Origin: Clostridia bacterium
Lineage (GTDB): Bacteria > Bacillota > Clostridia > Oscillospirales > RGIG5299
Assembly: GCA_017504945.1 (NCBI GenBank)
Contig: JAFVQJ010000014.1
Location: forward strand, 6,373 to 70,372
Reading direction: 5' to 3'
DNA length: 64,000 nt
Of the stretch, positions 1 to 30,433 are shown in pieces; within the stretch, counting starts at the first letter, position 1; every line of letters begins with the position of its first letter. A model generated the notes under the pieces. The model saw only the letters and a program-made list of their open reading frames with translations. It searched no databases and had not been told where the DNA came from. Both the position numbers and the translations under genes were made by a program.

Positions 1-185
1 AGTATCACGCCAGTTCTATTCGCCTGCGGCGAGTTCTATTGCTGCGCAGTGATATTCGGCTCGCGCCGAGTGGTATTCGCTTCGCGAGTTTGAAGGCGAA
101 TAGAATATCACTGAAGCCGCAAGGCTTCAATATCACTATTGCGATAGCAATAATATCACTCTTTGCGAGAGCAAAGAATATCACT
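1..185. repeat. Linker/hairpin array 1 (truncated by window start)
   Basis: ATATCACT occurs at 105-112, 130-137, 153-160 and 178-185 (+). Its reverse-complement form occurs as AGTGATAT 48-55, AGTGGTAT 69-76 and degenerate AGTTCTAT 12-19 and 32-39. Between linkers are short hairpins with unrelated stems: 112-129 (7 bp, loop GCAA), 137-152 (6 bp, GATA), 160-177 (7 bp, GAGA), 56-69 (5 bp, TCGC), 77-87 and 20-32. A central palindrome lies at 75-101. Confidence 0.8.
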
Positions 186-242
186 AAAAAACAGAGAAGA
201 GAGAGTTTCACGGAATTTTGTAACCGTGTTACTCTCTCTTCT
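186..242 (-). terminator. Intrinsic terminator of the minus-strand isomerase/URO-D operon
   Basis: A 12-bp stem (195-206 with 231-242) encloses an inner 5-bp stem (209-213 with 224-228). On the minus strand it is followed by T6 (A-run 186-191 on plus). Confidence 0.7.
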
Positions 243-350
243 ACTTTTATTGCCAGTTTCTCATTTGTATAACAAACGCATCGGGCTATGCCCATACCCT
301 TATTTTATTTCTCCGATAAGGACATCACCCAATAGGCAGAGCCGTTTTTA

Positions 351-1199
351 TCATTTTGAGGTAATTTGGTGAGCAATATCGACCATGCTTTTCAAATACG
401 CCTTGAATATCGGCAAAGGCGCGTTTCGCGGCGGCGCCGCCTCGTAGTTAAACGGGCAGGATAATTCAAGCTCCGAATAGACCTTGCCGAGAGATATCCA
501 GTCAAGCCTTCCGAAGCAGGGCATAAGGTGGTTATCGCCGTGTCCGTCGTTATCGTGAAGATGAAGCGCGCGAATAAGAGCGCCGTGCTTTTTCATCTCA
601 TTTGCGACCGTAAGCTCGGGAAAGACGTTTGCGTGGCCCGCATCGAAGCACATTTTGCAAAAATCGCTGTTTATTTCGCGAATAAGCTCACACACCTTGT
701 CGGGCTTGGCAAGCGAAAAGGAGGGAAAGGGCAGATTTTCAAGGCAAAGCGTTACTCCCTCTTGCTCGGCGGCGATTGCAAGCTCACGCATAAAAACGGT
801 ATTCAATGCTTTTGTTTCAGCTTCCTTGTGCTTTTCAATATCGTCTGTACCGAAGGGCATTATTGGGTGAATTACCATGCATTTTGCTCCGAGCACCCTT
901 GTTCCCTTCAGGGCAAGCTTCATTTTTTCCATGCGCTCGGCGCGCGCCTCCTCGGTGGAGTCGTCGATGGGAATACGCCACGGACCGTGCGTTTGATATA
1001 TCTCAACACCGTGCCTCTTTGCTATCTCGTGCTCAAGCGAAAGCCTTTTTAAAAAATCCTCCTCACAGAGAGAGTAAAGCTCGTCGTTGGTATTGGAAAT
1101 GGTGAAATCGAATGCCGAAATGCCGCATTCCTCAAGTGCTTTATATTTATCCTCTCCCTCAAGGCAGGTAATTCCCCTTGAAACGACAGATACCTTCAT
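351..1199 (-). CDS. Sugar phosphate isomerase/epimerase (xylose isomerase-like TIM barrel)
   Basis: ORF 351..1235 trimmed to ATG 1199 (MKVSVV), which has a purine-rich RBS. HGPW, MVIHP, LCLENL, DAGHAN and HLHDNDG motifs are typical of the AP endonuclease 2/xylose isomerase-like family. Confidence 0.75.
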   Translation of the reverse strand: MKVSVVSRGITCLEGEDKYKALEECGISAFDFTISNTNDELYSLCEEDFLKRLSLEHEIAKRHGVEIYQTHGPWRIPIDDSTEEARAERMEKMKLALKGTRVLGAKCMVIHPIMPFGTDDIEKHKEAETKALNTVFMRELAIAAEQEGVTLCLENLPFPSFSLAKPDKVCELIREINSDFCKMCFDAGHANVFPELTVANEMKKHGALIRALHLHDNDGHGDNHLMPCFGRLDWISLGKVYSELELSCPFNYEAAPPRNAPLPIFKAYLKSMVDIAHQITSK

Positions 1200-1241
1200 A
1201 ACAATCTCTTTTCCTTTCGGTATAGCTTGGCGCACGTCGCC

Positions 1242-2246
1242 TCAGCGCTTGTAAAAATCCTTTGATGCCTTGAAGAAGGCGTCGATATTCTCCCACGGAG
1301 AAGAGGGCGGGATATCACAGCCCGAGGAGAGCAGAAAATTGGGGTAGCGGCTGCATTTTTCCAAAAGCTCCGTTACCGCCTGCGCCATCGAGTCGGGCGT
1401 ACCGCCCGCAAACTGTGCCGCAGGGCTTACGTTTCCCATAATTACCGTGTCGGCAGGCATATTTTTGACCATATACTCCATATCGAGCGCGTCGCCGAAA
1501 TGGTAAGCGGTGGCGCCGAGAAGTGAGAGCGACTCGGTCATATACTGTGCCGAGGCGCCGCAGTTGTGGTAAATAACGGCAAAGCTGTCGCTCCTTACGG
1601 CGTCGATTATCTCTTTGACGTAGGGGTGAGAAAATTCGTCGGCAAGGGAGGGCGACAAAATGCCGGTAAGAGGCTCCGCCATAACTATGCCGTCGGCACC
1701 CGATGCCTTGAACGCTTTTGCATAGCTTATTAAAAATTCGGTTGCCTTTTTCAATACAACTTCAACCTTTTTTGGCTCGTCGAAGCAGTCGAACATAACG
1801 TTGTCAACGCCGATGATCCTGCCCGCAAGCGAAAAGGGACCGATAATTCCCGCAAAAACGGGGCGGTCTGTAATGAGCTTTTTTGCTTTTGCGATCGCGT
1901 CGACATAAATTCCCGTGCGCGCCGCACCTACGGCGGGGACAGAAAGCTCGTTTGCCTCCTTTTCGGAGGCTACGCATCCGCTTATAACTGTGGGGACTTC
2001 GCCGTCGATTATCCTTATCTCACAGCCAAACGCCTCTGCCTCGACCGAGAGGTCCATCATTGAAACGGCGGCAAGGGCGTCGGTGCGGTCTGCCACCGCC
2101 TTCATACCCGCTGCCTGAAGCTCGGCGCTCTTCGTTATCTCGGTAACGGCAGAGCCGATGAGCGAAACCGAAGGAAAGGAGAGTATCGGCATCGGCTTTT
2201 TTTCCTTTTGAGAAAAAGTGCTTTTGAAAAAATCGGTTATATTCAT
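1242..2246 (-). CDS. Uroporphyrinogen decarboxylase (URO-D) family protein, MtaA/CmuA-like
   Basis: 334-aa ORF. Length and motifs (GADGIVMAEP, YHNCG, SSGCDIPP) resemble URO-D-fold methyltransferases by eye. Confidence 0.6.
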   Translation of the reverse strand: MNITDFFKSTFSQKEKKPMPILSFPSVSLIGSAVTEITKSAELQAAGMKAVADRTDALAAVSMMDLSVEAEAFGCEIRIIDGEVPTVISGCVASEKEANELSVPAVGAARTGIYVDAIAKAKKLITDRPVFAGIIGPFSLAGRIIGVDNVMFDCFDEPKKVEVVLKKATEFLISYAKAFKASGADGIVMAEPLTGILSPSLADEFSHPYVKEIIDAVRSDSFAVIYHNCGASAQYMTESLSLLGATAYHFGDALDMEYMVKNMPADTVIMGNVSPAAQFAGGTPDSMAQAVTELLEKCSRYPNFLLSSGCDIPPSSPWENIDAFFKASKDFYKR

Positions 2247-2282
2247 AATGTAGATTCCCTGTCTTTGCTTGATAGATTTAGG

Positions 2283-2870
2283 TTATTTCGCATATCTCAT
2301 CTCGACGGTATTATATCCGTCACCGTCAATGCCGCCGAAAAAATAGTGAAGCTCGAAGCTGTCCGCGTACCATACGAAGTAAAATTTGCCGTCTGTAAAA
2401 GGAAGGTAGCCGTCGTCGGTACCGTATCCTCCGACTCTTTGCATAGTACAGAAGGAGGTCTTTTCATAAATATCGCCGCCGCCGTAAAGCAAAAGCGACT
2501 TTTCGTGCACGACTATTTCGTGCTTGCCGTCATCTGAACGGAAATTATAATATCTGCCGCTTGGAGAAAAAAGAATGACTGCAAACAAAACCAACGAAAT
2601 GCAGATGAAAGCTGACACCGAAAGAAAAACGGACAAGCCCTTCAGAATCTTATTTTTCGCGCGCTTGAAAAACCAAACGGCGAAAGCGGCTAAAACAAGT
2701 GCCACGAAGGGAAATGTAATTATCCACAGTATTTCTTTGGTAGATATGCCGAATAAATACAAATAAACGTTGTAATGCTTTAATACGGAAAGCAAAATAA
2801 ACAGTCCTGCCAAAGCGCTTGCGATAATAAAAGATATTTTGGAAAATTTCGGAAGACTATTATTTTTCAT
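2283..2870 (-). CDS. Membrane protein, unknown function
   Basis: ATG 2870 lies 6 nt after a GGAGG RBS. Several hydrophobic helices are N-terminal and the C-terminal domain looks soluble. Confidence 0.6.
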   Translation of the reverse strand: MKNNSLPKFSKISFIIASALAGLFILLSVLKHYNVYLYLFGISTKEILWIITFPFVALVLAAFAVWFFKRAKNKILKGLSVFLSVSAFICISLVLFAVILFSPSGRYYNFRSDDGKHEIVVHEKSLLLYGGGDIYEKTSFCTMQRVGGYGTDDGYLPFTDGKFYFVWYADSFELHYFFGGIDGDGYNTVEMRYAK

Positions 2871-2895
2871 TTTAATTCCTCCTGGTAAAATATTC

Positions 2896-2940
2896 AAAAC
2901 CCCTTCACGTATACATTATATCATAACGTGAAGGGGTTTT
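2896..2940 (-). terminator. Hairpin terminator after the 585-aa lipoprotein gene
   Basis: 15-bp perfect stem AAAACCCCTTCACGT/ACGTGAAGGGGTTTT with a T-rich tail on the minus strand. Confidence 0.6.
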
Positions 2941-2980
2941 CTATAATATTGTTACAATTTTTTGTAAAATCGTACCGAGT

Positions 2981-4738
2981 TTACGCCATGGGCAAGCCTG
3001 TCTTTGCGTTCATTATGCTGTCAAAGACAAGAGTGCTGTTGGGGAAAGCGTTTCTTATCTCGGTGGAGGAGTTGAAGCTGTAGAAGGTGTCGCCTATGAA
3101 GGAAATGTTGGTGCACAGATCTCCCGACGCCTCAACACAGCTGCCGCCGCCGAAATCACTCGAGCCCATCTGCTTATGGTTATTAAAGAGGAATGAAACG
3201 TTGTTTGCCTCGGTAAGAAGTATCTCGTAGAACTTATTTCCGACAAACTGATTTCCGACAAATGATATGCCGTTTCCTGCCGTCGCCGCATTTGCGTGAG
3301 ATCTTATTACCTTAACGCCGACGGGGTGATTGGTAATGGTGCAGTAGGAAACCGTTCCCTTGTAGCTGTCTATAAAGCACATACCCGTGCGCTGATACGC
3401 CTCGGAAACGCCGATAGAGATGTCGTGCGTATAGGACAAACCGGAGTTTGAAGCACACCAGAGGTCTTTAAGGTTAAAGTCGTAGCAGCCCTCCATATAG
3501 ATAGAGTAGTAGTTATGGCCGTAAAGAAGGTTACCACTCGTATCTACGGCATCGTAGCCGAGGTCGCAGCCGAGGGCGTTCATGGTGATGCCATGGCAGT
3601 TGTTGAAGGTGTAGTCGGTTCCGGATCCCCAAACGGACGAGCTGTTTGTAAAGGAAAGATTGCTGCTTCCGTTTGCAACCAAGAAGCTCTTGTTTCCGTT
3701 GCAAAGGCTTGAATTAAAGGTCATATTGTTGCAATTTACAAGGTTTACAAGAACGTAACAAGCGGTTGAAAAGAAATATTCAAAGCTTGAATTGCTGCAG
3801 TTTGTAAGAGCAAAACCGGTTGCAAGACCGTGGAAGGCAACAGCCGAGACCTTTACGGAGCCGTTTGTGAGAGAAACGAAGGTAGCAGTTTTGAAATGAG
3901 CTATCTGTACAACGTTCATATCGTAAATGCCGAAGGTCGTGCCGTTCCCGTTTATGTAGGTGGTTGCATCTCCGCCTAAAACGAATTCGGTGCGGTTTCT
4001 GCCGCTTCCGATAATATCAACGGGATGAGAGGAGGGGAGCGAGAGAACGGCGTTTACAAAATACTGACCTGCGCCGAAATATATTTTTGTTGCAAAGTTC
4101 ATTGCGGTCTGGATAGCCGCGCTGTCGTCGCTTGCAACACTCAAGCCGTCGTTTGCAACTGCGCCGAACCACTCGGGTCTTACTGCGAAGGAAAGCGCCG
4201 CTTCGGGATCATCGGGATCGGCGATAACGGAAAGGTTGCCAACCGCGCCCGAAAAGATGCGCTTGTTGCCCGCAATTATCTGCGAGCCGTTTTCAAAATA
4301 GAGGTAGGCGGAGTTGCCTAAAATTATTTTGCCGTTTCCTCTGAAGCAGAGGGAAACGTTTGAAGGAATAACAATACTTTCCTCTATCTTGAGCTCGGAG
4401 GAGATAACGAAGCTGCCCTTTTCGTAAACTGCCGCAAGAGCAATACCTTCTCTTAAGAGGATACTGTCGTCGGTAACGCCGTTTCCGCTCGTGTAAAGCA
4501 TTTCATCGGTAATTACCGTAACGCCTGCGGGGATCTTCGTTAAAATTTCGGAGGGAGCCGCCGTAAGCACGGGCATAGATGCGGCGATGCTGTTATAGAG
4601 CTTTATGCCCTCACTGTCGCCCTTTAAAAGCTCGATGCCGTTAACGGAGCTTGTCTGCGGTGCGCCGCAGCCTGCAAATAAGCCGAGGACGAGAACAACA
4701 GAAATTATTAAAGAAATTGCTTTTAAAATCTTTTTCAT
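2981..4738 (-). CDS. Lipoprotein with right-handed parallel beta-helix (pectate-lyase superfamily) domain
   Basis: Signal peptide with lipobox LFAGC. The RPEWFGAVANDG..DDSAAIQTA motif and repetitive N/G/S-rich beta-helix-like sequence support the domain call. Paralog of the next gene. Confidence 0.7.
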   Translation of the reverse strand: MKKILKAISLIISVVLVLGLFAGCGAPQTSSVNGIELLKGDSEGIKLYNSIAASMPVLTAAPSEILTKIPAGVTVITDEMLYTSGNGVTDDSILLREGIALAAVYEKGSFVISSELKIEESIVIPSNVSLCFRGNGKIILGNSAYLYFENGSQIIAGNKRIFSGAVGNLSVIADPDDPEAALSFAVRPEWFGAVANDGLSVASDDSAAIQTAMNFATKIYFGAGQYFVNAVLSLPSSHPVDIIGSGRNRTEFVLGGDATTYINGNGTTFGIYDMNVVQIAHFKTATFVSLTNGSVKVSAVAFHGLATGFALTNCSNSSFEYFFSTACYVLVNLVNCNNMTFNSSLCNGNKSFLVANGSSNLSFTNSSSVWGSGTDYTFNNCHGITMNALGCDLGYDAVDTSGNLLYGHNYYSIYMEGCYDFNLKDLWCASNSGLSYTHDISIGVSEAYQRTGMCFIDSYKGTVSYCTITNHPVGVKVIRSHANAATAGNGISFVGNQFVGNKFYEILLTEANNVSFLFNNHKQMGSSDFGGGSCVEASGDLCTNISFIGDTFYSFNSSTEIRNAFPNSTLVFDSIMNAKTGLPMA

Positions 4739-26490: not shown

Positions 26491-27374
26491 TGGAACTTCA
26501 AACAAGACTTCTTGAAAAGCTTCTCAATGCGGTAAAGGGCGCCTTTTCGGGCACCTCGTTGCCGTTTATGAGAAAGGGTCAGGAGCGTCTTGGCGCTTTG
26601 GGAGTCCGCTCCCTTGGCGACAGCGTTTTCTTTACTTCGGAAAAATTTGAAAATTTCGAGGCGGCGTTTGCCTGCCCTATTGATGCAAAAAGCGATATCG
26701 CGGTGCTTTACCTTCACGGCGGCGCCTACGTTTCGGGCGGCATAAGCTATGCAAAAAGCTTCGGCGGCGCTCTTGCGGCGTTGCTTTTTGCACCCGTTTT
26801 GTGCGTAAACTACCGAAAGGCTCCCGAGCATCCATACCCCGCCGCCCTTGAGGACGCCTTCGCGGCGTATCTCCGATTAAGAGAAGCATACCCGAATAAG
26901 AGAATTGCCGTTATAGGCGAGTCTGCCGGCGGCGGACTTTCCCTTGCGCTCGGTCTTAAAATAAAGGAGCAAAAGGGAATAATGCCCGACCTTTTTGCAG
27001 TTATCTCGCCGTGGAGCGACCTTTCCTTTTCGGGCGTTTCCTATATGACAAACACCAAGACAGATCCCACCTTAAACGAGGAGAGCCTTAAGCACTTTGC
27101 AAGCCTCTATATCGCGAATGACGACCCGAAAAATCCATTTATCTCCCCGATATACGGCGATTTCAGCGGCTTTCCGCCCGTTCTTATCATTGCGGGCACC
27201 GAGGAGCTTTTGCACTCCGACAGCCTGCTTACCGCATCGGCGCTCATTAAGAGCGGCGTAAAGCACGAGCTTTATCTCGAGAAGGGAATGTGGCACGTTT
27301 ATCCCCTTTATCCCACTCCCGAGGCAGAGCGCGCAAAAGAAAAGATTAAGGAATTTGTATTTAATGAAGGATAA
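26490..27374 (+). CDS. Alpha/beta hydrolase, family IV (HSL-like) esterase
   Basis: HGGAY oxyanion motif and GESAGG nucleophile elbow. The start overlaps the prfB stop (TAATG). Confidence 0.75.
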   Translation: MELQTRLLEKLLNAVKGAFSGTSLPFMRKGQERLGALGVRSLGDSVFFTSEKFENFEAAFACPIDAKSDIAVLYLHGGAYVSGGISYAKSFGGALAALLFAPVLCVNYRKAPEHPYPAALEDAFAAYLRLREAYPNKRIAVIGESAGGGLSLALGLKIKEQKGIMPDLFAVISPWSDLSFSGVSYMTNTKTDPTLNEESLKHFASLYIANDDPKNPFISPIYGDFSGFPPVLIIAGTEELLHSDSLLTASALIKSGVKHELYLEKGMWHVYPLYPTPEAERAKEKIKEFVFNEG

Positions 27375-28647
27375 CCGACAGTCTAAAAACTGGATGAAGC
27401 TCGATAACGCGGCAAAGATATATCCTGCCTCACGCTCGGGGGGCTGGATGGCCACCTTTCGCCTTTCTGCGTCGCTTACCGAGGAGATAGACCCCGTTAT
27501 TCTCGCGGCGGCAGAGGAGAGAACGGCAAGGAGATTTCCCTCCTTTTGTCTGCGACTTCGCCGCGGTTTCTTTTGGTATTATCTTGAAACGATAGACACT
27601 CCGCCCATACCGGAAAAGGACGTTAAAAACCCCTGTGCAAACTTCGATTTTGAAAAAACGGGCGGATATTGCTTTCGCGTCCGCTACCACGAAAACCGAA
27701 TAGCGCTCGAGTTTTTCCACGTTATAACCGACGGCACGGGAGGTCTTGTATTTTTAAAAACGCTCGTTGCAGAATATCTCGAGCTTAAATACGGCGTTAA
27801 GATACCGCGCGGCGACGAAATACTCGATTGCAACGAGGCTCCGCGTCCCGAGGAGCTTGAGGACTGCTATCTTAAGCACGCCCGCAAGGTAAGACTCAAG
27901 AGAAGGGACGAAAGCTCTTATCGCCAAAAGGGCGAAAAAGAGGAAAAGGGAATAATAAACGTCGTTACCGCCATTACCGAAACGGAAGGGCTTCTCAAAA
28001 AGGCAAAGAGCTGCGGAGCAACCGTTACCGAGTATTTAACGGCGCATCTTATTGCGGCTTACCGCACCGTTCAGCTCACCGAGAAAAAGAAGAGCGAGCG
28101 CATAAAGCCGATAAAGATATGCATTCCCGTAAATTTAAGAAGGTTTTACGGCGCAAAGACTCTTCGCAACTTTGCCGAATTCGTAAACGTGGGCATTGAC
28201 TGCCGTCTCGGCGAATATGAATTTAACGAGATAATAAAGACCGTCCATCATCAGATGGGGCTTTATATTAACGAAAAATATTTAAACAGCAAAATTTCGG
28301 CAAACGTCGGCGACGAGAGAAACGCCCTCGTGAGAGTGGTGCCGCTCTTTATAAAGGATATGGTCCTGAAGATCGCCTTCAAGAAGAACGGCGACAGAAC
28401 GTCGGCAACGACGCTCTCAAATCTCGGAAGGATAGTCTTGCCCGACGAGATGTCGCGCTATATTACCCGATTTGACTTTATGCTCGGTGCCCTTTCGAAA
28501 AATCCGTCGGCATTTGCAACGGTGAGCTACGGAGAAAGCACCGTGATAAATATGGTCCGCTCGATAGTCGAGGCGGACGTTGAAAGAGAATTCTGCCGCC
28601 GTCTTGTTAAGGACGGAATTCACATCAAGGTAGAAAGCAACAGATAG
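27364..28647 (+). CDS. Condensation-domain-like acyltransferase (HxxxDG motif; AATase/WS-DGAT/PapA5-like)
   Basis: HVITDGTGG catalytic motif at about residue 120. ATG 27364 is preferred on RBS spacing. Overlaps the esterase 3' end. Confidence 0.6.
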   Translation: MKDNRQSKNWMKLDNAAKIYPASRSGGWMATFRLSASLTEEIDPVILAAAEERTARRFPSFCLRLRRGFFWYYLETIDTPPIPEKDVKNPCANFDFEKTGGYCFRVRYHENRIALEFFHVITDGTGGLVFLKTLVAEYLELKYGVKIPRGDEILDCNEAPRPEELEDCYLKHARKVRLKRRDESSYRQKGEKEEKGIINVVTAITETEGLLKKAKSCGATVTEYLTAHLIAAYRTVQLTEKKKSERIKPIKICIPVNLRRFYGAKTLRNFAEFVNVGIDCRLGEYEFNEIIKTVHHQMGLYINEKYLNSKISANVGDERNALVRVVPLFIKDMVLKIAFKKNGDRTSATTLSNLGRIVLPDEMSRYITRFDFMLGALSKNPSAFATVSYGESTVINMVRSIVEADVEREFCRRLVKDGIHIKVESNR

Positions 28648-28657
28648 AGGTGAGGAA

Positions 28658-29365
28658 ATGAGCTATTGCGTAAACTGCGGAGTTGAGCTTGCAAACACCG
28701 AAAAAAGCTGTCCGCTTTGCAACACTCCCGTAATAAATCCCGTTTCTCCGTGGAAGGAGCCCGAAAAAAAGCCCTATCCCGAGAGGATAGACAACATAAT
28801 GAAAAAGATAGACTTCAAGTTCGGCGTGCGCCTTGCATCTCTTTTGCTTATTCTCCCCGCCGCCGTTACCGTTTTGTGTAATATTGCGGTAAACCGTAAG
28901 CTTGATTGGTCGCTTTACGTCGTCGGAGCGCTTGCCTGCCTATTCGTCTACGTTCTGCTTCCGCTTCTTTTTAAAAGACACCGCCCCTATCTCTTCGTGG
29001 TTATGAACACGGTGGCGACCTCCGTTTACGTTGCTATGATAGCGTGGTTAAACGGCGGCTTTAATTGGTATTTCGAGCTTGCGGCGCCTGTTATCTGCAT
29101 CACCTTTGCCGCCGCGATGATACTCACCTTCGTCTACGGTAAAAAGAATGTGGCGCCTCTTCACAAGGTTGCAACGACCTCGCTTGTTATCGGAGCCGTT
29201 GCGGTGGCTGTGGAAACGGCAGTCGACCTCTTCGTTTTCGAAAAGGTGCTTTTTCACTGGTCGCTTTACGTTATGATAGTCTGTGCCGTATTTGCTGCCG
29301 CCTTTGCTCTTTTGCAAAGCAAAAGACAGTGGAAGGAAGAAATAAGAAAAAGGCTTTTTTATTAA
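28658..29365 (+). CDS. Zinc-ribbon polytopic membrane protein, unknown function
   Basis: N-terminal CVNCG...CPLC zinc ribbon followed by ~5 hydrophobic helices. Confidence 0.6.
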   Translation: MSYCVNCGVELANTEKSCPLCNTPVINPVSPWKEPEKKPYPERIDNIMKKIDFKFGVRLASLLLILPAAVTVLCNIAVNRKLDWSLYVVGALACLFVYVLLPLLFKRHRPYLFVVMNTVATSVYVAMIAWLNGGFNWYFELAAPVICITFAAAMILTFVYGKKNVAPLHKVATTSLVIGAVAVAVETAVDLFVFEKVLFHWSLYVMIVCAVFAAAFALLQSKRQWKEEIRKRLFY

Positions 29366-29390
29366 AATATGCAAAATAAAATCCACCCTC

Positions 29391-29418
29391 TGCGTACCTG
29401 CCATAGAGCAGGTACGCA
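29391..29418 (+). other. 11-bp perfect hairpin at the operon 3' end (no T-tract)
   Basis: TGCGTACCTGC-CATAGA-GCAGGTACGCA. Confidence 0.6.
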
Positions 29419-29622
29419 ACGAAATTTGCCCTTTCGGGCAAGTGAAATCGCTTTGCGGTGAAATATTTGCTCCGCAAATGTGAAATGTCCGCTTGCGCGG
29501 ACGTGGGCAAATTTCATTTCACATCGAGCAAGGCGAGATATTTCACAATGTGCGGTAGCACATTATTTCACGTTTTGCGGAAGCAAAACATTTCACTATA
29601 TGCATTTGTGTCTTCAAATGCA
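29419..29622. repeat. Linker/hairpin array 2
   Basis: GTGAAAT at 29442, 29458 and 29480 (plus CGAAAT at 29420), then the reverse complement ATTTCAC at 29516, 29540, 29565 and 29590 (spacing 24/25/25). Hairpins: 29426-29441 (loop TTTC), 29465-29479, 29487-29502 (TTGC), 29547-29564 (GGTA), 29572-29589 (GGAA) and 29601-29622. Confidence 0.8.
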
Positions 29623-29697
29623 GTGCTTCGTATGTATTAACTAAAGGCTACAACAAAATTATTATCTGTTGACTAAACAAAAAAGTTAACACAAAAT

Positions 29698-29728
29698 GAG
29701 CCTTCTCCCACAGGAGAAGGCTTTTTTA
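29698..29728 (+). terminator. Intrinsic terminator (+ strand)
   Basis: GAGCCTTCTCC-CACA-GGAGAAGGCT followed by T6. Confidence 0.7.
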
Positions 29729-29792
29729 CATTCCGCGCTACATATAAAGAGGACAGAGAACGCAAAGCATCCTCTGTCCTCCTGTCGGTCGG

Positions 29793-29833
29793 TATAAAAA
29801 GGCACTTATGGCGGTTTTGTCATAAGTGCCTTT
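29793..29833 (-). terminator. Intrinsic terminator of the Cys-rich small ORF
   Basis: AAAGGCACTTATG/CATAAGTGCCTTT 13-bp stem followed by TTTTTA on the minus strand. Confidence 0.65.
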
Positions 29834-29845
29834 GCGTTGCTTTTG

Positions 29846-30049
29846 TCATAGTAAGGACTGGGGGATTTCTGTTTTGTTAATTGTTTTGCTTTTTGAATCA
29901 AATTCGGGGAAACAAAGCAAAAAGTAGTCGCATTCGTCGCAACAGCATTCAAATCCTTGCTCTCCGTTGCCAAGACAAACGGCAGGCTCTCCGGGCGTAA
30001 GTTCTACTCCGGTAATGTCTATGATCTTTTCTTGCATATTCTTGTTCAT
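29846..30049 (-). CDS. Small cysteine-rich protein (six Cys including a CCC-x2-C cluster), unknown function
   Basis: 67 aa. GGGGGG RBS 5 nt upstream. Own promoter, leader and terminator. Confidence 0.55.
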   Translation of the reverse strand: MNKNMQEKIIDITGVELTPGEPAVCLGNGEQGFECCCDECDYFLLCFPEFDSKSKTINKTEIPQSLL

Positions 30050-30070
30050 AGATTCCCCCCATCAGCATAT

Positions 30071-30229
30071 AAAAAAGTGCGCCCCAAAAGGGACGCACCG
30101 AAAAAATGCTTCCCCTTAGTTTGTTGTCACACAAATGCTCTCCCAACGAAGGTATGAGGAAAAGGAGAAAACACTTTTTACCAAAAGTATTTTCCCTTCG
30201 TTGGTTAGAATATATGCAATTTGTGTGAC
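30071..30229 (-). promoter_or_regulatory. Structured 5' leader: 104-nt rod hairpin plus intrinsic terminator (candidate riboswitch/attenuator or sRNA)
   Basis: P1 30126-30136/30219-30229 (11 bp), P2 30143-30152/30195-30204 (10 bp), P3 30167-30178/30183-30194. P3 contains a G-U pair on the minus-strand RNA that would be a C-A mismatch on plus. Terminator GGTGCGTCCC-TTTT-GGGGCGCAC followed by T6 at 30099-30071. Confidence 0.55.
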
Positions 30230-30235
30230 GAGTAT

Positions 30236-30264
30236 ATTTTACCACATCTCTGTCGGTTTGTCAA
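30236..30264 (-). promoter_or_regulatory. Consensus sigma-A promoter driving the leader
   Basis: On the minus strand: TTGACA (30264-30259), 17 nt, TGgTAAAAT extended -10 (30241-30236). The predicted TSS falls at the base of P1. Confidence 0.6.
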
Positions 30265-30322
30265 TAAAGCTTGAGGATTTGACAAAACTTTGGTGTCTTT
30301 AATTAAATCAGTGCTTGTCAAG

Positions 30323-30356
30323 AAAAAAAGACGAGGAATTTTTGCAATTCTTCGTC
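30323..30356 (-). terminator. Intrinsic terminator of the marR-ABC operon
   Basis: GACGAAGAATT/AATTCCTCGTC stem (one mismatch) followed by T7 on the minus strand. Confidence 0.6.
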
Positions 30357-30433
30357 CTTTTCCTGTTGGTAGGTATTTTGATTTTTATACTGCTCTATCG
30401 CAGATCCCCCTCGGGGGTGGATTTATTTTTTGT

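Follow-up and report, generated by a model that had tools for sequence, protein, structure and literature searches.

An intergenic array of hairpins and heptamer linkers in gut Clostridia carries the Gut-1 RNA motif as its left half

Results

A two-half array between convergent genes

The DNA analyzed here is a stretch of 64,000 nucleotides, hereafter the window, from a Clostridia bacterium (GenBank assembly GCA_017504945.1, contig JAFVQJ010000014.1, positions 6,373 to 70,372 of the forward strand), and the element under study, array 2, is found around positions 29391–29622. Array 2 is one copy of a non-coding repeat whose left half is the Gut-1 RNA motif. As the initial annotation of the locus had noted, it sits between convergent transcription units: on the left, a plus-strand gene for a DUF6320/zinc-ribbon membrane protein (28658–29365) and on the right, on the minus strand, a 67-amino acid open reading frame (ORF; see below) and two genes for ATP-binding cassette (ABC) transporters (exporters). 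A 430-amino acid ORF upstream of the DUF6320 gene (27355–28647) has a weak, sub-threshold match to alcohol acetyltransferase (AATase) and belongs to no NCBIfam family.

The heptamer GTGAAAT is found at 29442, 29458 and 29480, its reverse complement ATTTCAC at 29516, 29540, 29565 and 29590 (spacing of 24, 25 and 25 nt), and CGAAAT at 29420; all the positions and spacings listed initially were confirmed in the sequence. In the left half, or side A (29417–29491, plus strand), CGAAAT and the three GTGAAAT words form linkers L1 to L4, which separate hairpins H1 (29426–29441; arms 29426–29431 and 29436–29441, a perfect stem), H2 (29449–29457), a small CG-CTTTG-CG hairpin overlooked before, and H3 (29465–29479; arms 29465–29470 and 29474–29479, also perfect). 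H4 (29487–29502; GTCCGC-TTGC-GCGGAC, arms 29487–29492 and 29497–29502) comes next and is followed by the right half, or side B (29511–29598, minus strand), in which the four ATTTCAC words, R1 to R4, alternate with hairpins H5 (29523–29539), H6 (29547–29564; arms 29547–29553 and 29558–29564) and H7 (29572–29589; arms 29572–29578 and 29583–29589), the last two with perfect stems; read on the minus strand, side B is a Gut-1-like array. On the plus strand, as are H1 to H4, the ensemble is preceded by a leading hairpin, H0 (29391–29401/29408–29418), with a perfect 11-bp stem and no T-run, and followed by H8 (29601–29608/29615–29622; TGCATTTG-TGTCTT-CAAATGCA), which is part of the unit and is kept in the related loci L087 and L088. 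Every hairpin of the initial annotation proved perfect at its coordinates; H5, there taken for a degenerate unit, is in fact a tandem G·A/A·G mismatch hairpin (ATC-GA-GC…GC-GA-GAT) that recurs in related copies.

Counting both strands, the window contains 16 occurrences of GTGAAAT (8.66 ± 2.95 in shuffled sequences), of which seven fall within 155 nt, where by our arithmetic about 0.02 would be expected. A 241-nt stretch covering the array has a predicted folding energy of −104.9 kcal/mol (z = −8.4, relative to its own shuffles) on one strand and of −102.7 kcal/mol (z = −9.6) on the other. The heptamers and hairpins are far above chance, and the word counts and folding z-scores rule out a chance cluster of palindromes. 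Other identities were also rejected. No T-run follows any of the hairpins H0 to H8 of array 2, for which a terminator scan returned only marginal matches (29491–29508 and 29441–29426), and these hairpins are therefore not intrinsic terminators; in other copies, H0 is a full bidirectional terminator. A CRISPR (clustered regularly interspaced short palindromic repeats) array is at odds with a repeat of 7 nt (instead of 23–50 nt), with palindromic 'spacers', with a sole match to CRISPR-DR28 at 18.6 bits (E = 1.7), and with the absence of a cas gene nearby. A type III toxin–antitoxin RNA (ToxI-like), for which near-identical tandem repeats of about 36 nt would be expected upstream of a toxin endoribonuclease gene, was discarded as the units differ in sequence and the neighbors are a DUF6320 protein, a hydrolase and ABC transporters. 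A tRNA-like identity of the array was likewise rejected.

Side A matches the Gut-1 RNA motif

A scan of the whole window against Rfam gave a single match above threshold: side A (29417–29491, plus strand) scored 69.3 bits with RF01706, 'Gut-1 RNA', for a gathering score of 50 (E = 9.2e-12). The right half, read on the minus strand (29598–29511), scored 41.6 bits with the same model, below threshold (E = 1e-6 in a local search). A second copy of the family, array 1, lies at the left edge of the window (1–186, plus strand), with the words GTTCTAT/GTGATAT/GTGGTAT and ATATCAC; its Gut-1 matches, within 11–186, are also below the gathering score, with 41.7 bits for 11–81 (plus strand) and 42.2 bits for 186–100 (minus strand). 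Over the window, the E values of these three sub-threshold matches are about 1e-4 or lower. No further Gut-1 match was found in the 64-kb window beyond arrays 1 and 2, and the only other Rfam matches in the region were weak and sub-threshold. The consensus of RF01706 (CAaUGAAAU, hairpin, GUGAAAU, hairpin, GUGAAAU, hairpin, UGAAAU), that is, (G)UGAAAU linkers between three variable hairpins, is the grammar that had been read from the sequence alone. Thus, the suggestion of a new family does not survive, since the left half belongs to a curated Rfam family, whereas the suggestion of a family of elements, as opposed to a chance cluster, is borne out by the Rfam matches and by the related copies described below; arrays 1 and 2 do represent one grammar written with different linker words.

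The Gut-1 motif was described by Weinberg and co-authors, who considered it likely to be an RNA (Weinberg et al., 2010; Genome Biol 11:R31, PMC2864571); the motif as presented there is one half only. Their seed alignment already includes GUGAUAU-type members, like array 1, and its unmodelled flanks contain a tRNA 3′-end, a terminator, a GUGAUAU half and then an AUAUCAC half. Relative to the motif description in that publication, what is added here is the inverted half, H0, a long-range helix (a:a″; see below) and the word families, as well as the high copy number, the placement in terminator loops and after tRNA genes, and the differences in presence or absence between genomes. The motif itself has been known since 2010; the whole element, its grammar and its genomic behavior are new with respect to that description. 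A full-text literature search returned no later paper naming Gut-1, and nothing relevant on the heptamer or on miniature inverted-repeat transposable elements (MITEs) at terminators.

A fixed four-plus-four architecture

A total of 185,579 species-representative genomes were scanned for three GTGAAAT words spaced 12–22 nt apart, which gave at least 120 loci. Among the matches listed, most are in metagenome-assembled genomes (MAGs) of gut Clostridia, Eubacteriales, Acutalibacteraceae, Oscillospiraceae and Ruminococcaceae, several are in Akkermansia, and many are at contig ends; more than 20 of the listed loci have a plus-strand array followed by a minus-strand array. The host MAGs come from pig, ruminant, horse and human gut. 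About 60 related copies were compared, and 37 'canonical' two-half elements were collected from MAGs and from a few viral contigs. Array 2 is the core of an element of about 200 nt, and the 37 canonical elements follow a common plan: H0; CA and L1; H1, L2, H2, L3, H3, L4, H4; a short center; and R1, H5, R2, H6, R3, H7, R4. Every canonical copy has a hairpin in the H0 position; of the aligned copies, about half have there a bidirectional terminator, complete with A-run and T-run. The hairpins of side A are short (9–15 nt), and the lengths of H2 and H3 usually add up to 24 nt (11+13 or 9+15), whereas those of side B are of 17–18 nt. Array 2 is identical in two other assemblies of the same organism and is therefore not an array of variable copy number, as had been considered; the four-plus-four design is fixed.

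The hairpins fill the entire space between linkers, and the closing pair is C:G in 226 of 261. When segments bounded by linkers were retained only if at least 60% of their positions were paired, 886 of 942 symmetric positions formed Watson–Crick pairs, though the stem sequences differ. Among the same 942 pairs there are 17 G:T and 10 A:C (6 and 9 in an earlier count); G:T pairs being rare and close in number to A:C, wobble pairs mark neither strand. The stems had been called unrelated, and indeed they differ between the hairpins of a copy, but individual positions keep signatures across copies: H6 reads AATG…CATT and H5 often ATC-GA-NC…GN-GA-GAT, with the tandem G·A mismatch. In the 37 elements, the loops are C-TTC-G, C-TGC-G and C-TCC-G in the GTGAAAT half and C-GAA-G, C-GCAA-G, C-GTTA-G and C-GTAA-G in the ATTTCAC half, so that on the ATTTCAC-bearing strand the loops of both halves read G(N)NA (GAA, GCA, GCAA, GTAA, GTTA). 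Thus, the switch in linker and loop polarity between the halves, first seen in the two arrays of the window, is real and general across the related elements. Among mini-hairpin loops in DNA, GNA and GNNA closed by C:G have the highest stability, and in RNA the GNRA loops are likewise stable, which offers a lead.

Less regular relatives were also encountered. Akkermansia MAGs (L009, L013, L059 and L074) have one-sided GTGAAAT arrays, one of which is followed by an array with CGAGATT linkers, and the arrays of a Clostridia MAG, L011, use (A)TGATG as the linker. Six predicted viral contigs (IMG/VR) carry arrays with true hairpins, two-half on L135, L178, L182 and L247 and one-sided on L154 and L222. 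In L092, an ATGAAAT array and an ATTTCAC array are 490 bp apart; this sole widely separated pair of halves encloses tandem repeats and no gene, and we thus discarded the notion of cargo-carrying relatives. Lastly, in L270 (metagenome contig SAMEA3663248__coassemble_115) the sequence between two direct repeats, a′ and a″, is absent; the locus reads CAACGAAATAAATCCC-TTGC-GGGATTTATTTC-ATTTCAC and continues into side B, so that H1 is one long hairpin and the element is one-sided. The L270 copy represents either a deletion between 7-bp repeats or the state that preceded the insertion of side A.

A covarying long-range helix and matched linker words

In array 2, an 11-nt segment formed by L1 and the 5′ arm of H1 (segment a, 29421–29431; GAAATTTGCCC) can pair with the 11 nt just before R1 (segment a″, 29505–29515; GGGCAAATTTC), both on the plus strand, a″ being a copy of the 3′ arm of H1 joined to the complement of L1. 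Across 21 distinct elements, 90.9% of the cells of this 11-bp helix are paired, and 10 of 12 pairs vary on both sides; the covariation score, 0.53, compares with 0.20 in shuffles, none of 500 shuffles attained the observed value, and sliding the partner segment by one column lowers pairing to 52–61%. The part contributed by L1 also covaries (GAAAT/ATTTC, GAGAT/ATCTC, TAAAT/ATTTA and GATAT/ATATC). Because a″ repeats the 3′ arm of H1, the a:a″ helix competes with H1.

The linker words were surveyed by a metagenome scan anchored on H1 (AAATCCCTTGCGGGATTT), with the linkers left free, to which array 1 was added. Six word pairs emerged, GTGAAAT/ATTTCAC, ATGAAAT/ATTTCAT, GTGATAT/ATATCAC, GCGATAT/ATATCGC, TCGATAT/ATATCGA and ATGAAGT/ACTTCAT, which share an NYGAWRT core. 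Within each subfamily, the words that predominate in the two halves are exact reverse complements of each other. This bears out the generic descriptor put forward at the outset, in which any word may be repeated provided that the polarity switches. Both minimum free energy (MFE) folding and RNAalifold pair the linkers of side A with those of side B, producing a predicted 'ladder' of four-way junctions. Compensated changes were found for one locus (L056; GTGAAGT/ACTTCAC) and, under an assumed nested register, for L3:R2 of another (L356).

The element is in the loop of a host terminator

A conspecific contig encoding an identical DUF6320 protein (L003; GCA_965319465.1) lacks positions 29390–30411 of the window and has, in their place, an intact bidirectional terminator, AAAATCCACCC-TCG-GGGGTGGATTTATTTTTT. 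In the window, a 1,022-bp block (29390–30411, plus strand) is found within the loop of that terminator, the arms of which are 1,022 nt apart: the A-run and 5′ arm (AAAATCCACCC+T) at 29378–29389, and the remnant of the loop, the 3′ arm and the T-run (CGGGGGTGGATTTATTTTTT) at 30412–30431. The hairpin at 29391–29418, previously assigned to the 3′-end of the gene, thus arrived with the insert, which split the true terminator (29378–29388 and 30413–30431). Nor is the array simply a native 3′-untranslated region of 28658–29365, as the whole block is absent from the contig with the identical protein.

The block consists of a Gut-1 unit of about 334 bp (29390–29620 joined to 30309–30411) and of a nested cassette of 688 bp (see below). 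The right tail of the unit (30309–30411, plus strand) contains a terminator-like hairpin (30330–30356) and ends in TACTGCTCTATCGCAG, which repeats the left end, CTGCG…ATAGAGCAGGTA, imperfectly and in inverted orientation. A sheep-gut MAG (L087) has the unit uninterrupted: a 337-bp piece, 96.7% identical to 29389–29620 joined to 30309–30413, is found there between unrelated flanks, again inside a bidirectional terminator (AAAAACGAAAGCAC … GTGCTTTCGTTTTT). When this copy was folded with its flanks, the stem of the host terminator (15 bp, then a U-run) was predicted to close around the insert (MFE of −159.1 kcal/mol, z = −12.4). Metatranscriptome contigs also contain the uninterrupted unit, recognizable by a joint across which 688 nt are skipped. 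In contigs of further runs, the unit has different flanks, which finish with an A-run and a stem arm just before 29387–29392. Split terminators also bracket the copy in L030 and array 1. The unit of array 1, about 360 bp, lies between an AP (apurinic/apyrimidinic)-endonuclease-family gene and a DUF3221-like gene (window 1–356 and L126), inside a terminator split into AAAAAAACGGCTTTGCC and GGCAGAGCCGTTTTT, the latter at about 340–356 of the window; its H0 (GCGTGATACTC-TTAAC-GGAGTATCACGC) is just left of the window start and the complete copy is in L126 (5900–6300).

The unit, about 335 bp in length and with no ORF, is present in many copies. In four pig-gut DNA runs with the locus, contig depth was 11–50 over the flanks, 305–3,036 over 29394–29535 (30–60 times the flanks) and 3–10 times the flanks over side B; the excess in depth thus points to tens of near-identical copies in the community. 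The window itself has two copies, at least nine contigs of the MAG JAZTZP01 carry one, and many contigs end inside arrays. The presence of the unit at some sites and its absence from others, together with near-identical copies between unrelated flanks and copies on viral contigs, lead us to infer that the Gut-1 unit is, or was, mobile.

A nested cassette with a small gene

The 688-bp cassette (29621–30308, minus strand), outside the Gut-1 unit proper, is flanked by an 8-bp direct repeat, CAGTGCTT (29621–29628 and 30309–30316). It is skipped in X25 and X28 contigs and is absent from L087. On its minus strand, a promoter scan found a near-consensus promoter (30264–30236), followed by a leader of about 180 nt that includes a long hairpin as well as a terminator (30099–30076), and by the 67-amino acid, Cys-rich ORF (29846–30049; …CLGNGEQGFECCCDECDYFLLCFPE…), which has no match in Pfam or NCBIfam. 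Its DNA depth is two to six times that of the flanks and the cassette is therefore repeated too. The cassette, which landed in the Gut-1 unit later, has the appearance of another small mobile unit, carrying a regulated peptide gene. Positions 29653 and 29849 are joined on opposite strands in DNA contigs of X1, X3 and X4, and in one X26 contig (labelled 'RNA?'); such a joint hints at a different arrangement, or at part of the cassette being present elsewhere in inverted form.

Association with tRNA genes, neighboring genes and expression

Fifteen of the 37 canonical elements begin 36–71 nt past the 3′-end of a co-oriented tRNA gene or operon, although only 34 tRNA genes are present in the 313 kb examined around the same loci. 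The sequence between tRNA and element consists of CCA, an A-run, H0 and a T-run. One and the same H0 (AGCACTTGC…GCAAGTGCT) is found behind various tRNA genes, in several MAGs and on a viral contig, and therefore travels with the element. The copy on the viral contig L247 is directly behind a tRNA-Ser gene. With tRNA genes counted, we estimate that the left-hand transcription unit is co-directional with the element in at least 21 of 27 copies checked, although left-hand orientation was mixed in a crude ORF scan; the right-hand neighbor has either orientation. No neighbor gene is consistent across copies, and only ordinary genes were seen. Two contigs have two direct copies of H0 plus element around 0.5–2.5 kb of ordinary genes (L060, 4186–5210, and L035, 94–3150), coding for a histidine phosphatase, a pyrophosphatase, a methyltransferase and a leucine-rich repeat (LRR) protein, with no integrase or transposase among them; in both, the first copy is behind a tRNA gene and, in L060, the second is followed by a tRNA-like 3′ fragment (gcgggttcgaatccc).

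The expression data are assembled contigs of public runs, without strand information. Metatranscriptome contigs contain the element, in some cases joined to the upstream terminator. The ratio of element to flank depth in RNA (for example, 115–158 against about 3 in X26) equals that in DNA.

Discussion

The Gut-1 element has features in common with several known systems. It resembles the repetitive extragenic palindromic (REP) sequences and bacterial interspersed mosaic elements (BIMEs) of Enterobacteria in being a high-copy extragenic palindrome at gene 3′-ends arranged in mosaics of opposite orientation; however, REPs conserve the palindrome and vary the linkers, whereas the Gut-1 element does the reverse, keeping the linkers, the closing pair and the loop type. 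The stems vary both within a copy and from one copy to another, which sets it apart from the REP/BIME group, and no GTAG-type tetranucleotide or RAYT transposase gene was seen with the Gut-1 copies (RAYT genes were not searched for genome-wide). With MITEs and with insertion sequences (ISs) that target hairpin loops it shares small size, the lack of coding capacity, multiple copies, filled and empty sites, near-identical copies in unrelated flanks and insertion into hairpin loops. Elements that target loops include IS1397 and ISKpn1, found in REP loops, and the class C group II introns, found at terminators. In contrast with these, the Gut-1 unit has weak terminal inverted repeats and an ambiguous target duplication, no parent (autonomous) element or transposase was found among the neighbors examined, and its interior is an ordered array of hairpins and linkers and not a plain long hairpin. 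Like CsrB/RsmZ and the tRNA-derived sponge 3′ETS-leuZ, it displays a short single-stranded motif repeated between arbitrary hairpins, and many copies are in tRNA trailers; it differs from them in that the motif varies between copies, no promoter is present and the copy number is high.

We interpret array 2 as the structured core of a mobile-like, self-folding, multi-copy intergenic repeat of uncultured gut Clostridia that is tolerated by terminators, a reading to which we give a probability of about one in two. The element would act while single-stranded, as read-through RNA or as DNA. The single strand would collapse into a compact multi-junction fold composed of the nine local hairpins and of the a:a″ helix, linker-to-linker pairing, or both, and the fold would draw the two ends of the element together, so that, as we propose, the arms of a split host terminator could still close around it. 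Terminator loops and tRNA 3′ flanks would then be harmless landing places, in which copies persist and pile up; a compact fold that keeps the split terminator functional would explain where copies survive.

Several points weigh against this interpretation. The tRNA-trailing copies come after an intact terminator and not in a terminator loop, and the preservation of termination is a folding prediction. The ends of the unit, CTGCG..ATAGAGCAG and CTGCTCTAT..CGCAG, form a short and imperfect inverted repeat, a possible target duplication in the window is ambiguous (ATCCACCCT versus ATCCCCCT), and none is evident in L087; moreover, the difference from L003 could be a deletion instead of an insertion, and part of the excess in depth may be due to additional species present in the samples. 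The neighboring genes of the copies examined included no transposase, integrase or other candidate mover. As to the fold, the a:a″ helix and the linker ladder cannot coexist without a pseudoknot. Most single-linker changes are not compensated in the partner half, and attempts to fix the pairing register by covariation from linker to linker gave inconsistent results; linker-to-linker pairing therefore rests on family-level matching. The words match at the subfamily level, as could be expected if they paired, if they co-evolved with a protein, or if the halves descended from an inverted duplication.

A bolder version of this interpretation, which we put forward tentatively and with the odds against it, is that Gut-1 is not a small RNA (sRNA) gene but half of an undescribed bacterial mobile element that lands in hairpins, namely terminator loops, tRNA trailers and its own first hairpin. 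Its grammar, any 7-nt word four times and then the reverse complement four times, between hairpins conserved in structure only, would specify stacked junctions that zip up by themselves in a single strand of DNA or RNA, a fold that would serve both movement and terminator function. The direct repeat a′/a″ and the L270 copy that lacks the intervening sequence point that way.

Alternatively, Gut-1 could be a functional RNA, an sRNA or a processed trailer of a tRNA or mRNA, in which four single-stranded GUGAAAU linkers, spaced by inert hairpins, would bind and titrate a multimeric RNA-binding protein or a complementary RNA. The rating of Gut-1 as a likely RNA (in the description given in PMC2864571), the strong conservation of structure only, the covarying long-range helix, the fixed orientation with respect to the upstream transcription unit, which for 15 of 37 copies is a highly transcribed tRNA gene or operon, and the metatranscriptome contigs in which the element is joined to the upstream terminator would all suit such an RNA. 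However, an intrinsic terminator is often immediately upstream and the T-run of H0 is too close to L1 to leave space for a promoter; G·U pairs are rare, with no strand bias in the pair counts given above; the halves have opposite polarity; the depth of the element relative to its flanks is the same in RNA as in DNA; copies number in the tens and their presence differs between strains; and a linker word that varies by subfamily, even within a genome, fits poorly with a single protein partner. On balance, we consider a functional RNA of this sort unlikely. Somewhat less probable still is a module of use to the host at gene 3′-ends, like the REP/BIME sequences of Escherichia coli, acting as a two-way insulator, a back-up terminator, a block to 3′-exonucleases, or a site for a topoisomerase or nucleoid protein, the first three of these roles after strongly expressed units. 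The element is always intergenic, 3′ of genes or tRNA operons and beside or inside bidirectional terminators, both H0 and the sequence that follows R4 often double as terminators, the pseudo-dyad design would serve both directions, and the mosaic of palindromes in opposite orientations recalls BIMEs; yet the internal hairpins have no U-runs, a conspecific strain does without the element at the array 2 locus, and the matched linker words and the a:a″ helix are left unexplained.

That the words are matched could also reflect an array of iterons in double-stranded DNA, with 7-bp predicted protein sites, as for instance in a miniature element made of two fused multi-site transposon ends; the words would co-evolve with the protein and the palindromes would be secondary. 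The repetition of one subfamily-specific word, built on the NYGAWRT core, at all eight positions and with opposite orientation in the two halves, the constant summed spacing in side A (11+13 or 9+15 nt) and the behavior of the element as a mobile unit agree with this view, which we nevertheless judge improbable: the perfect palindromes, the G(N)NA loops closed by C:G and the covarying 11-bp helix are signs of folding as a single strand, the words are not at the outer ends of the mobile unit, and no cognate protein gene was found among the neighbors examined. The word also resembles the half-sites of Rex, CRP and ParB-type operators; readings as a double-stranded operator were set aside, since only half-sites are present and never a palindromic full site. 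A sponge-like RNA, a BIME-like module and an iteron array are not mutually exclusive. An invertible switch, finally, appears very improbable. Inversion of side A between a and a″, the 11-bp inverted repeats that flank it, would yield a uniform array of eight ATTTCAC units, but all 37 elements are in one configuration, no strand-switch joint at a/a″ was found in eight runs (in contigs, from which a rare form could escape), and about 75 bp is very short for an invertase.

Gut-1 has been an orphan motif in Rfam since 2010, without a host, a context or a function. It now has hosts, among abundant uncultured gut Clostridia, a complete anatomy and a genomic behavior. If mobile, the element marks a new route of transposition that targets hairpins in a major group of gut bacteria, and it would frequently break metagenome assemblies; if it is a working RNA, the link to tRNA operons hints at where and when that RNA is made. 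Either way, the sharing of one arbitrary word by the two halves constitutes a concrete and testable structural hypothesis.

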